A stretch of 64,000 nt of DNA, taken from NCBI GenBank assembly GCA_964016885.1, contig OZ024762.1:21142001-21206000 (forward strand). The letters are read 5' to 3'. Origin of the DNA: Eledone cirrhosa. Taxonomy: Eukaryota. A program made the translations under genes and the position numbers. The notes under the pieces are model-generated. The model saw nothing but the letters and a program-made list of their open reading frames with translations, was not told the origin of the DNA and did not search any database. Positions 1,891 to 62,959 of this stretch are shown here, piece after piece (the stretch's first letter is position 1; each line of letters begins with the position of its first letter).

Positions 1891-1996
1891 TATATACACA
1901 TACATAAATGCATATACACATATACACACATATACACACATATATATATATATCAATAATATTAATAAATGGAAACTATCTTTATAAAACATTATT

Positions 1997-2058
1997 TATT
2001 TTATTATATATATTTCAAGGGTAGCAAAATTTTTGGTACGCTCTCATCAGATAAAATA
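1997..2058 (-). ncRNA. Type-I hammerhead ribozyme motif (mirror at 3014-3067 on +, stem I broken by a SINE)
   Basis: UAUUUUAU-CUGAUGA-GAGCGUACC..GCUACCCUU-GAAA-UAUAUA-UA-AUAAAAUA. Confidence 0.7.
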
Positions 2059-2356
2059 CAAAAGTTGTTTTATAGATAGTGACATATCCAAAAACAAGAA
2101 CTTATTGTTTTAAGTTCTGTTTGAATAGTGAAAGAAATTCAAATGCTAGGATGAAAATGTTAATGAGGATAACGTAAAGTTGAAAAAGATTGTTATATTT
2201 AGACGCTAGATAAATTTAAATAATTATTAGTGTTATTTTTTAAGGGAAGAAGAGAGAGGTTAATATTAATATTAGGGTGTAAGAAAATTTAAGGAAAGAA
2301 TATAAGAAAAAGTATATTATAGTTAGAAATAGACTATTATTATTAATATATAATTA

Positions 2357-2547
2357 GGGCAGTGGATTGGCAGTATCGGTAGAGGGTCGGACGCCATGCT
2401 TTCCAGCATAGTTACGTTCCTTTGCGGTCTGAGTTCAAATCCCGCCGAGGTGAACTTTGCCTTTCATCCTTACGGGGTCGATAAAATAAAGTACCAGTAA
2501 TGTACTGGGTAATTGATGGCCTTGTGCCAAAAGTAGAAACGATTATT
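2357..2547 (+). mobile_element. tRNA-derived SINE family B (Deu/Nin-like domain); other copies ~3068-3185, 11930-12070, 18490-18675, 27895-28300, 33345-33485, 45560-45927, 47485-47712, 48967-49155, 55555-55740, 60040-60180
   Basis: TGGCAGTATCGG / GAGTTCAAATCC pol III boxes; GCCTTTCATCCTTACGGGGTCGATAAAATAAAGTACC resembles the DeuSINE/Nin domain; (ATT)n tail. Confidence 0.85.
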
Positions 2548-3304
2548 AATATATAATTGTATGGATCATATTAGTGATGGTGTATAGAGAGTGAAATATT
2601 TATTTATTTAATTATATATTTTGGTAGTATTTATAATATAATAAATATAATATGAGAATTATAATTGCGTTGAAGTGGAAGAATATCAAATTTTAAAAAA
2701 TGAGAGATACTACTAATTATTGGGTCTATTCTAATATTATAGAGATAATATTTATAAGTATATTTTATGAAGAATTAGGGTTGTAAGTATATTTTATTTT
2801 ATTTTATATTACAACAGGTTATTTATATAAATAATTTTAGTGTTGTTTTTATAGATAATTTAAATATTTTTTATATGTGAATAGTTACGATGAATTTCTT
2901 GTTTACATTTTCAATATATATTTAAGAAAAAGGAAGTAGTTCTATTTTATTATAGAAGATTATTTTGTACATTCAATATTTTGGATATGTCACTATTTAT
3001 AAAACAACTTTTGTATTTTATCTGATGAGAGCATACCCAAAATTTTGGTACCCTTGAAATATATATAATTGTTTCTACTTTTGGCACAAGGCCAGCAATT
3101 ATCCTAGTGTATTACTGGTACTTTATTGTATCGACCCCGTAAGGATGAAAGGCAAAGTTGACCTCAGCGGGATTTGAACTCGGAAATATGGTTTTATATA
3201 GATAGTTTCCATTTATAAATATTATTGATATTAAGAAAATCTTGTAGAGTGCTTCGAATCTGTTATAAATAAATTTGTTGAATAACCAACAAATTAAATA
3301 ATCC

Positions 3305-4333
3305 TTGGTACAGTTAGGTAGTTAAATAAATTTCGGGTTCAATGAAAAATATTTGCTCACACACGAAAACGTGTATTCACAGTGTGTATGTGTATACATG
3401 CGTCAGTGTGTGTGTGTGTGTTTATATTTTATAATCATAAACTTCGAGCCCTTCATTTATTTAACCACGTTTTAAACAGGGGATTTCCTTTAAATATATT
3501 CCAAAACTTTCCACATTTAAAATATAATGTAGATAAATATAAAGATATGGCTGTTATCTCTAGCATTTGTATCGAACACAAACGGTCGAATATTTTACGC
3601 AACGTAAACAAAGACACACACACACATATACATATATGTACATGATGTTTAATACACACACACACATATATATATATATGTATTATGTATATATTATATG
3701 CATATATAAATATATATATTATATATATATTATATATGTATTATATATATATATTATATGCATATATAAATACATACACACATATACACCACCCCCATAT
3801 ATATATATATATATGTCTAACTTAATAGTACCACCTGACGAAGTTTTTCAAATCAGGATTTGGACACCATGGCTCACTCAAGTAGAAAGTTATTTATTGT
3901 TTACTGAGACATATCCGGGCGTAGAAGGTTTATCCGGAATTCCCCGAAGGAATTTGTCCAAAGACATCTTGAACTTTATGGGATCTGTTCCCGTATTAAA
4001 CATCATGTACATATATGTATATGTGTGTGTTTGTCTTTGTTTACATTGCGTAAAACATTCGACCGTTTGTGGTCGATACAAATGCTAGAGATAACAACTA
4101 TATCTTTATATTTATCTACATAATATTTTAAATGTGAAAAGTTTTGGAATATATTTAAAGGAAATCCCCTATTTAAAACGTGGTTAAATAAATGAGGGGC
4201 TCGAAGTTTATGATTATAAAATATAAACACACACATACTAACGCATGTATAAACACAGTGAATACACGTTTTCGTGTGAGAAAATATCTTTAATTAAATC
4301 CCAAATTTATTTAACTACTTTAATAACTAAGAG
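3305..4333. repeat. ~345-bp inverted repeat pair
   Basis: 3305-3655 vs 3993-4333, also visible as matching ORF-track peptides on opposite strands. Confidence 0.85.
3830..3995 (-). mobile_element. LINE (CR1/L2-like) 3' terminal fragment
   Basis: FKMSLDKFLRGIPDKPSTPGY resembles the FKxxLDxFLxxIPDxP..GY C-terminus of such ORF2s. Confidence 0.55.
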
Positions 4334-4682
4334 ATATCTGTGAAATAAATTTAAAAAGTTTTGAACTTTAATAAAAATTTTTTTAAAAATTCTTTACCCA
4401 TGATGCCACAGTAGCGACATCAGTATCACCAAGTTAGCGACATCAGTTCCTTAAAAGTTTTCAAAGGGAAATCTCAAGAACGATAACTCCGTTTGGCTTT
4501 AATCGCAAAATTGGGTGTAAAAACTTTTTTGTATCTGCAGTGTACACAGGCGAACGTTATCTCGATTCTTCCTTTATGAGCATTCACTCTTAACGTAATT
4601 CTCAGGAAGATTCTGTGTGGCAGATTGTATGACAAAGCTGGCCCCATATATGTATAATATATGTATTATATATATATATATA

Positions 4683-60530: not shown

Positions 60531-61432
60531 GTGGTGAGTGGCACGAATTATTTTTCATTTCCTTAATATCGATCTCTATTGTCAAATATACACCAATATT
60601 ATGTTAAAGGCACGTGGCTGAGTGGTTAGAAAATTGGGTTCGCAATGGTGAGGTTGGGAGTGCGATTCCCGGACTGGGCAATGTGTTATGTCCTTGAGCA
60701 AGCCACTTTATTTCACGTTGCTATTTCTGTCTGGATTTCTGACAGGTAGATAGTATTACCAATTGGAAAGACCAATGGAAACATTGTTTCCTCGGTCCAA
60801 TTTGAGGAGCTCCAACCCTTTAGCATCTACATTTCTTTATATATACAATTGTATTTTTGTGAGATAATATCGAATCTATGAAATTTTGATATTTATTTCG
60901 AGAACAATACCTTAACAGCAGTATGAGTGGCCGGTTACGGCCAGTTTGAACAGAAAGAGGTGAAAGAATTCTGGCTGGATACAACCGGTTTAAATGCTAA
61001 AGGGTTAAGTGAATAAGGTCTGGGATCGTGTCGATCAACTGTTATATTATGTTTAGAACCCAACTCCCTGTTGCTAGTTCATCCTTGTATTATCCCCTAA
61101 TGTCTTGGGCCCATTTGACTAATAAAAAATACACCTTTATTAGGTTTAGATCCCCAACTCTTTGTTGTTTTGTCGTCCTTGTATTATCCATAATGTCTTG
61201 GGCTCTTGTGATCAATAAAAGATAAGCCATTATATTGTTTAACTCCCAACCAAATACAGCTACTTTAAACTTCGAACTGACAATCTGACTGGTATCAAAA
61301 TTACAATTACGCTGTTAAAATACACCCACACCCAAACATCCACCCCCACACTCATCCACACACATATATATGATAGTCATTGATAGTAGAATCGTATACA
61401 ATCATATGTATGTATATATATATATATATATA

Positions 61433-61840
61433 TGTAGGAGGTGAGTTTTATTGTAGTACAATAAAGCAATGCAGATATCGGATAAGAAGCACTCTACAGT
61501 TTGTAGGACTGGAGTATACATAATATAAGATCAAAAGATGGTTAAAGGAGTTCCATGTATTTTATTATGCGCATTTCAAAAACAAACATCATCATGCAAT
61601 AATATTTGTGTTTTCATCAGATAAAACAGGAGAACATGATATGAAGGCTAAAAAACACTTGTGGATAGTGCAGTTTTAAATCAACATATGCACTATCCAC
61701 AAGTGTTTTTTAGCCTTCATATCATGTTCTCCTGTTTTATCTGATGAAAACACAAATATTATTGCATGATGATGTTTGTTTTTGAAATGCGCATAATAAA
61801 ATACATGGAACTCCTTTAACCATCTTTTGATCTTATATTA
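61433..61840 (-). mobile_element. Fold-back element family P2 (152-bp perfect arms, 16-nt loop, ~88-bp one-sided tail)
   Basis: 61521-61672 / 61689-61840 are reverse complements; flanked by (TA)n; internally deleted copy at 4683-4854. Confidence 0.8.
61733..61803 (+). ncRNA. Type-I hammerhead ribozyme motif (mirror copy 61558-61628 on -)
   Basis: UGUUUUAU-CUGAUGA-AAACACAAAUA..UGUUUGUUUUU-GAAA-UGCGCA-UA-AUAAAAUA; palindromic stem III. Confidence 0.78.
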
Positions 61841-61932
61841 TATATATATATATATATATATATATATATATATATATATAATTTTTATTTAATTATACAA
61901 GAAATAACACACTATAATTACGTCCAGTACGC

Positions 61933-61998
61933 TCATCTGATGAGCGTACTGGACGTTTCTGTTAGAATCGTCTAGTTTCCTGAAACCTTTGGTAATGA
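61933..61998 (+). ncRNA. Imperfect type-I hammerhead motif inside a partly deleted fold-back (family P4, ~61885-62033)
   Basis: UCAU-CUGAUGA-long stem II (ACUGGACG/CGUCUAGU)-GAAA-CC UUU GG-UA-AUGA; base of stem II mismatched. Confidence 0.5.
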
Positions 61999-62549
61999 AA
62001 TAATTATATTGTGTTGTTTATTATGTAATTAAATTGCTCTGTACTATATATAGAGCACTCTTCTTTCCTCTACCTGTACACACACACATATATATATCGA
62101 AATAAGAGTGGTATATCATAAGAAAAGAGAAGGAACTATGATATAAAATGTTAGATGCCTTAGACAAAGCGAAGTGTGCTCAATGCTTAAAGATGCAAAA
62201 TTAAATATTATACTGGAGTTAATATTTAAGGAGAATTTGTGTACAGGATAAGCAGAACGGGTATATGCAGAAATATATATATATATATATCGAGTACTCT
62301 GGTGCGTTATGGTCCACCTGGTTCCTTACCACACTTCCTTCGTTATATATATATATTTGGTGAGGGCGCGTGGCTAAGTGTTTAGAGAATTGGATTCTCA
62401 ATTGTGAGGTTATGTCTTTATTTCACGTTGCTCCTTCTACCTAGAGTTGCGACCGATAGATAGTATTAGCAATTGGAAAGACAAATGGAAGCATTGTTTC
62501 CTCGGTTCGATTTGACCAAAGTCGTTCGACTGTTATATATATATATATA

Positions 62550-62959
62550 TATATTAATAAGAGGAATTCCAACTTTGTCTGATTTACTCGTTTTATTTAC
62601 AATCCTTTAAAATTTATAATGGTATTATAATGAAATAGTATGATAGAATATTAAATGTTAAGTGTTAATTGAACAAGTACTTTCATGCTTTCGCAATCTT
62701 CAGGTTCATAATATGCGGTGACAGTCAAGTTTGCAATTTTCAACTGTTGAAAATTGCAAACTTGACTGTCACCACACATTATGAACCTGAAGATTGCGAA
62801 AGCATGAAAGTACTTGTTCAATTAACACTTAACATTCTATCATACTATTTCATTATACCATTATAAATGTTAAAGGATTATAAATAAAACGAGTAAATCA
62901 GACAAAGTTGGAATTCCTCTTATTAATATAATCTTCTATACACAAACATACACACCCGT
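62550..62959 (+). mobile_element. Fold-back element family P1, second copy (1-nt loop at 62745)
   Basis: Same arms and tail as 10585-11018. Confidence 0.8.
62782..62820 (+). ncRNA. Minimal type-I hammerhead motif (mirror copy 62670-62708 on -)
   Basis: Identical to 10828-10866. Confidence 0.7.

Follow-up and report, generated by a model that had tools for sequence, protein, structure and literature searches.

Head-to-head pseudo-LTR pairs of Penelope-like elements with hammerhead motifs in Eledone cirrhosa and their likely origin by priming from both target strands

Insertions with an inverted pseudo-long terminal repeat (pLTR), a tail on one side and (TA)n targets have been described for Penelope-like elements (PLEs) that encode an endonuclease (EN) (PMC3846280; PMC8557442), and in Schistosoma minimal hammerhead ribozymes form pairs that lie 100-700 bp apart on opposite strands (PMC4209133). 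With the Poseidon protein in vitro, both DNA strands were cut and extended, and two internal start sites of the reverse transcriptase (RT) flanked the tail, while uncut RNA was the main template of Poseidon_Ac (PMC11167929). The origin of the inverted repeats and tails, as well as hammerhead cutting in vivo, are treated as open questions in the accessible parts of the PLE literature. For octopus, the accessible text of a repeat annotation mentions Penelope, not hammerheads or palindromes (PMC13282606). Here we analysed a stretch of 64,000 nucleotides of Eledone cirrhosa (assembly GCA_964016885.1, contig OZ024762.1, positions 21,142,001 to 21,206,000 of the forward strand; hereafter, the window), in which an initial annotation, made from the sequence alone, had noticed short fold-back elements of four families, P1 to P4. 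We conclude, with a probability of roughly 80%, that these palindromes are head-to-head pLTR pairs of autonomous PLEs, likely formed in one step in which both cut strands of a (TA)n tract primed complementary DNA (cDNA) synthesis.

The P1 palindrome P1a consists of a left arm (10585..10788, minus strand), which is a pLTR without a tail, a right arm (10796..10990, plus strand) and a tail of ~50 nt found on the right side alone (10991..11041, plus strand), which continues into (TA)n. In the genome searched (3.0 Gb), the P1 arm was present at 100% identity at no fewer than 40 loci, and at 11 of the first 30 it formed the end of a longer element. The 19 places with long P1 copies that we fetched contained open reading frames (ORFs) of up to 775 codons. 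These copies, too, were arranged as inverted pairs, and their fold points lay at scattered positions within the ORF. The 775-aa parent protein matched GIY-YIG with 28.9 bits (cut-off 22.6) and RVT_1 with an E value of 3e-6 and 27.5 bits, slightly below the cut-off of 29.6. Its translation, read by eye, contains a CX4CxxC linker and CCHH in the EN, in agreement with the definition of the Neptune/Nematis PLEs (CX2-5CxxC linker, CCHH in the EN; PMC8557442). Tandem copies have the order pLTR, tail, (TA)n, ORF1, RT/EN frame, 3′ untranslated region (UTR) and pLTR, and partial-tandem pLTR-ORF-pLTR copies of P1 were found at loci L036 and L040. ORF1, of ~450 codons, lies in a different frame and overlaps the start of the RT frame (L040:3299-4650 (+), and L036); an ORF1 separated by a frameshift is a described PLE option. 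An in-frame UGA ahead of the RT frame was considered and rejected, because the upstream ORF lies in another frame, and a 91% “second subfamily” of P1 arms turned out to be an artefact of the tail aligning to (TA)n. Genome-wide there are 5562 exact P1 core words, and 1413 P1 arms retain native upstream sequence. P1 insertions have (TA)n on both flanks, which masks any target-site duplication. P1 is therefore a young PLE with an RT plus GIY-YIG frame, and its pLTR makes up the arms. The earlier assignment of the hammerheads to Penelope-like pLTRs was correct, the arms being the 3′ ends of RT/GIY-YIG elements. As a side observation, one P1 insertion lies at the TA-rich end of a P3 arm (L130 / L174).

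The P2 palindrome P2a comprises a left arm with its tail (61429..61689, minus strand; tail ~85 nt), the pLTR of a parent with Hydra-clade motifs, and a tailless right arm (61689..61846, plus strand), which begins 17 nt short of the fixed 5′ end described below. A pattern search gave 8325 exact P2 core words genome-wide. Long P2 copies encode an 821-aa protein and have the inverted layout with scattered fold points, and partial-tandem pLTR-ORF-pLTR copies are present at L114 and L116. The protein contains DKT, a CxCX5C linker, CxxC and CxH around the EN end, no CCHH, and RWT at the position of the RWK motif, and the target is (TA)n. In BLASTP it matched the P1 RT region with an E value of 3e-5, and GIY-YIG occurs in 26-50% of the members in several clusters of its Atlas neighbours. 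Two results weigh against autonomous parents in these families: Pfam gave no RT or EN match in the P2 protein, and no parent ORF emerged for P4, a family with 14 exact words genome-wide and with the layout and tail of the others, in which one weak EN match lies ~4.5 kb upstream of one copy. P3, with 2320 exact core words, has long copies encoding pieces that are 40-56% identical to the P2 protein in most matches, and P2 and P3 have a common stem I, pLTR end and tail motif (local score 93 vs. a best score of 81 in 500 shuffles). On these similarities, P2 and P3 are related, and both belong to elements with Hydra-clade motifs, P3 by its similarity to P2, so that the description of four mutually unrelated families does not extend to this pair. 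The P2 tail (61429-61514) and the P3 tail (3233-3310) contain a common short hairpin-like motif, hairpins are also present in the P1 and P4 tails, and all of these are candidate RT recognition signals. In one P2 palindrome (L294), two A>G changes are common to both arms and absent from nine other copies, which may reflect a source variant or an edited template. At L115:1322-3331, two P2 arms enclose a distinct PLE with ~27% identity to the P1 protein.

The arrangement of tails and centres bears directly on how the pairs form. When only pairs with both arms reaching the pLTR end were counted (8 P1, 2 P2 and 4 P3 pairs being excluded), a tail was present on exactly one arm in 23/24 P1, 22/24 P2 and 3/3 P3 pairs. 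One-sided tails had been noted for P1 and P2, where they stand, and belong to P3 and P4 as well. Among 30 tailed P1 palindromes there were 27 distinct centres, and the centre junction of the palindrome at 10585 is unique in the genome. Many P1 centres contain extra or duplicated bases, and solo P1 arms exist. The short copies are made anew each time.

In the initial annotation, the fixed hairpins were proposed to propagate as ORF-less, non-autonomous retroelements similar to retrozymes, each unit being transcribed and retrotransposed in its entirety. Recurrent centres speak for such propagation, the commonest P1 centre being present in 582 genomic copies and the P2 centre of the window in 17. 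However, the centres that recur are those requiring the simplest joins by microhomology; they are found in more than one subfamily, and either arm may bear the tail, while the other centres are nearly all unique. The commonest P1 centre is a 5-nt overlap of two full arms, as in the window palindrome P1b, which belongs to an older subfamily (left arm 62550..62747, minus strand, beginning at the predicted transcription start; right arm with shortened tail 62743..62959, plus strand). For the window P2 centre, ten occurrences were examined, with the tail on the short arm in nine and on the full arm in one; the window copy has it on the full arm. Moreover, the stubs have no upstream TATA box, and no RNA-editing footprint was seen, in that 0/214 P1 arms had ≥5 A>G or T>C changes; six P2/P3 rows flagged in this screen had equal or more changes of other kinds. 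With the arms ending ORF-bearing elements and nearly every centre different, we regard the propagation of fixed hairpins as quite improbable.

When 30 loci with the commonest P1 centre were oriented by the tail, the central base was A in 11 and T in 10 (eight had no scored tail, and one had two tails). The near-equality is expected if annealed cDNA ends form a central T-T mismatch that resolves either way, whereas snap-back of a tailed cDNA would give only A. This is relevant to self-priming, in which the second arm would be synthesized by a single cDNA (or an antisense template) that folds back where the RNA ends and serves as its own template, as proposed for Penelope elements of Adineta (PMC3846280). 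The 5′ ends of P1 and P2 are nearly self-complementary, and partner arms are mostly of the same subfamily and sometimes have common rare variants, both of which would suit this route. Nevertheless, the 11:10 ratio of A to T, the extra or duplicated bases at many centres, the discordant P1 pairs described below and the extension of both strands by the Poseidon protein (PMC11167929) make self-priming unlikely.

We also considered a single arm inserted first and duplicated later in inverted orientation by DNA repair or replication slippage. Solo arms and the rare variants common to partners would agree with this, but it leaves unexplained why the second arm always ends at pLTR +202, and also the one-tail rule and the discordant subfamily haplotypes, so that such a history is very improbable. 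An assembly fold-back artefact, which might be suspected from the 99-100% identity of young arms, is hardly credible: the tails are asymmetric, the flanks distinct and the mutations arm-specific, and a contig from a public run contains the fold-back letters in the same place (run X5, position 4670), although the run and the assembly may have been produced in one study. The symmetric termini and fixed internal sequence of a miniature inverted-repeat transposable element (MITE) or fold-back DNA transposon were not found; the elements have a one-sided tail, variable centres and an RT parent. Nor did we find the head-to-tail tandem units of a non-LTR retrozyme, the pairs being head to head.

The arms have a preferred 5′ end. 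In a set of 88 distinct P1 arms, taken in genome order and required to have an intact core, so that ends downstream of the core are invisible, 38 started no more than 2 nt away from one point, and 58 had their start in the range −2 to +12; 28 of the remaining arms reached further upstream and two began later. For P2, 25/64 arms started between −1 and +10, and the mapping of P3 5′ ends was noisy because of subfamily divergence. The fold point is thus non-random, as the initial annotation had it. The fixed point of P1 lies 31 nt behind a TATAAAA in the 3′ UTR of the parent and, by virtue of this spacing, is likely the transcription start. Runs X1 and X5 show a step in contig depth near +1; as this figure is a sum, it was not used as a copy number. 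Two results weigh against this assignment. No clear TATA box is present at −31 in P2 or P3, so that the start-site reading leans on P1 and on the clustering of ends, and there is no cap-derived G before P1 +1, the preceding base being C in 19, A in 15, T in 10 and G in 8 cases of a set that included some long-copy variants. That the fold is fixed is due to the constant 5′ end of the RNA and not to descent from a master hairpin.

We then asked how many templates a palindrome represents. In ten of 22 informative short P1 pairs, both arms resembled some arm elsewhere more closely than they resembled each other, and one discordant pair showed six recurrent differences and no private ones. A series of observations points the other way. 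Partner arms are mostly of the same subfamily and differ at 1.04 recurrent positions vs. 3.5 for random pairs; rare variants common to both partners were found (seven in short P1 pairs, five in P2, five in P3); strongly discordant pairs numbered 0/13 among the informative P2 and 0/6 among the P3 pairs; and the P1 discordance is concentrated in one variable patch, ~+31 to +38. The similarity of partners is explained equally well by a single RNA, a single source locus, self-templating or two RNAs. Two cDNAs per palindrome are well supported, and two separate RNAs are weakly indicated. The patch itself (P1 arm +31 to +38, window ~10820-10828) is hypervariable and lies immediately 5′ of hammerhead stem I; several of its variants could lengthen stem I, and partner arms often differ here alone.

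Most probably, priming from both target strands would proceed as follows. The enzyme of the element would make a cut in each strand of a (TA)n tract, and a separate cDNA would be primed from each of the two ends. Synthesis of one cDNA would begin on the far side of the tail and that of the other on the near side; the two would extend to the RNA 5′ end, which is the predicted transcription start, and their 3′ ends would be joined through short homology. Multi-kb inverted copies would arise in the same way from longer templates, and templates cut by the hammerhead would give a second cluster of ends. Having no upstream promoter, the stubs are mostly dead ends. A more detailed version is tentative, and we hold it to be possible rather than probable: the stubs, in their thousands, would preserve the in vivo intermediate of PLE replication, each insertion would consist of two cDNAs from two RT starts joined at their 3′ ends, the fold would map the transcription start, the second end cluster would record germ-line cutting, and the stem III palindrome may keep two template RNAs together within one particle, in the manner of a retroviral dimer-initiation site.

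With a relaxed type-I descriptor, seven hammerheads were found in the window, all with a palindromic stem III, and 0 in 100 dinucleotide shuffles of the window, confirming that both the palindromes and the hammerhead cores are real. They lie at +10833/−10742 and +62787/−62703 in the two P1 palindromes (stem III AGUACU), at +61741/−61620 in P2a (stem III AUGCGCAU) and at −2050 in P3 (stem III AUAUAUAU). Four positions differ between the P2 and P3 stems III, and both are still palindromic. A stricter descriptor gave no matches over the window, because it required stem II to pair from its first base, and the Rfam search recommended in the initial annotation returned no hammerhead among 110 matches at E ≤ 1. 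In the P1 motif, stem II starts with a U-U pair at its base, and the nucleotide at the cleavage position is U. Among 51 arms not selected on the core, variation across the P1 motif span was 1.5% vs. 7.1% and 3.4% in the flanks; minimum-free-energy z-scores of the single ribozymes were unremarkable (−0.6 to −1.65). One ribozyme per arm, as originally described, is found in P1 and P2, but not in P3. The P3 element (1945..3310, unstranded) is an inverted pair of longer 5′-truncated copies with a tail at ~3233-3310, in which the core at −2050 is intact, while the plus core (3022) fails the descriptor, being broken by a piece of a short interspersed nuclear element (SINE) at ~3070-3184; a second SINE lies at ~2357-2554. 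At ~1.36 kb, P3 also exceeds the size of 0.15-0.45 kb given for these elements. P4, which we placed ourselves at 61886..62085 (unstranded), the initial annotation having given it no coordinates, is an old family with a tail on the right and a fold point just upstream of its core. It had been credited with a type-I core, and the core letters are present (+61937), together with a self-contained stem III, but the core is degenerate: one stem II base is mismatched, stem I has only 4 bp, and the descriptor is failed. In ~1.09 Mb of flanks of the fetched loci, we noticed ~10 more families of type-I hammerheads, about half of them with a palindromic stem III (ACUAGU, AUGCAU, ACUAAUUAGU, ACGU).

Some genomic ends lie where such ribozymes would cut. 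When P1 arms departing from the element at set positions were searched for and the first 30 matches per search were classed, the predicted cut (+74) accounted for 14 true junctions, two of them at a single locus, as against 2 at +71, 11 at +78, 6 at +85 and 2 at +103. Extrapolation to all matches gives ~5, ~37, ~72, ~37 and ~10 for +71, +74, +78, +85 and +103, respectively. Probably, a minority of templates are hammerhead-cut, giving a second end cluster at or just after the cut. Against this, the estimate for +78 is above that for +74 genome-wide, and the +74 to +85 cluster could be due to RT stalling at stem I or to a microhomology hotspot. Within complete palindromes, cleavage had been expected to compete with the formation of double-stranded RNA (dsRNA). 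Such competition would be lopsided: the ribozymes point outward, so that the antisense arm is transcribed first on either strand, and full palindromes reach folding energies of −256 to −312 kcal/mol, pairing 94-98% of their bases. With the antisense arm made first and pairing nearly complete, the ribozymes of a palindrome would be masked.

The inverted repeats of these elements in the window span 10585-10990, 61515-61846, 62550-62930 and 2003-3069, and palindrome arms are 96-99% complementary. Their outward-pointing arms and their position next to (TA)n or TA-rich sequence were seen as first described, and so was the coreless P2 copy reported at 4683, which corresponds to P2b (4677..4858, unstranded), two heavily 5′-truncated arms head to head, with the tail on the right and without the CUGANGA half. 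Further inverted-repeat elements lie by (TA)n at 3391-4257, 271-1095 and 50998-51796; they contain no hammerhead by the descriptor and may be two-armed insertions or MITEs. A 34-bp minisatellite of 52 copies occupies 6301-8077, with a diverged neighbour at 8445-9015, and 48-49-bp arrays recur across the window.

The value of this system is that young, abundant families from two clades coexist in one genome, which makes a count-based test possible. The counts speak more for priming from both strands than for self-priming, and they suggest that a small fraction of templates had been cut by the ribozyme. The stubs, moreover, seed the genome with many near-perfect inverted repeats of 0.3-0.4 kb, which would yield dsRNA if read through. 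In the passages of the open literature covered by our searches, we found no report of a fold at the start site, of twin priming in PLEs or of the one-tail rule.

Compared with the EN-bearing PLEs described (PMC3846280; PMC8557442), the elements studied here have the same pLTR, inverted 5′-truncated copy, tail at one end, (TA)n target and pLTR hammerhead, and the P1 ORF1 likewise lies in another frame. They differ in being mostly ORF-less stubs with both arms stopping at one fixed 5′ point, in their tails (~50-90 nt vs. 30-40) and in the near-absolute one-tail rule. Just as in the minimal PLE hammerheads (PMC4209133), there is a type-I core with a palindromic stem III and predicted action as a dimer; here, however, P1 has U-U in place of G10.1-C11.1 and U at position 17, the stem III palindromes are 6-8 nt long, and the stem III of P4 is self-contained. 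The accessible text of the Poseidon_Ac study (PMC11167929) reports no strand difference in start sites and no RNA-seq ends at the ribozyme cut, whereas in E. cirrhosa the start site nearly always differs between the two arms, and the cut is the starting point of a minority of genomic ends. P2 matches the Hydra clade (PMC8557442) in DKT, CxCX5C, CxxC/CxH, the lack of CCHH, (TA)n and the hammerhead, but has RWT instead of RWK and a long 3′ UTR of ~1 kb, the likeness being one of motifs. With the metazoan non-LTR retrozymes (bioRxiv 10.64898/2026.07.22.740005; PMC7229834), they share short, non-coding, PLE-related units with type-I hammerheads, although retrozymes are head-to-tail tandems, and the present units are arranged head to head and have the same sequence as the ends of coding elements. 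In other words, the elements are ordinary in kind, and they are informative on the mechanism of PLE insertion.

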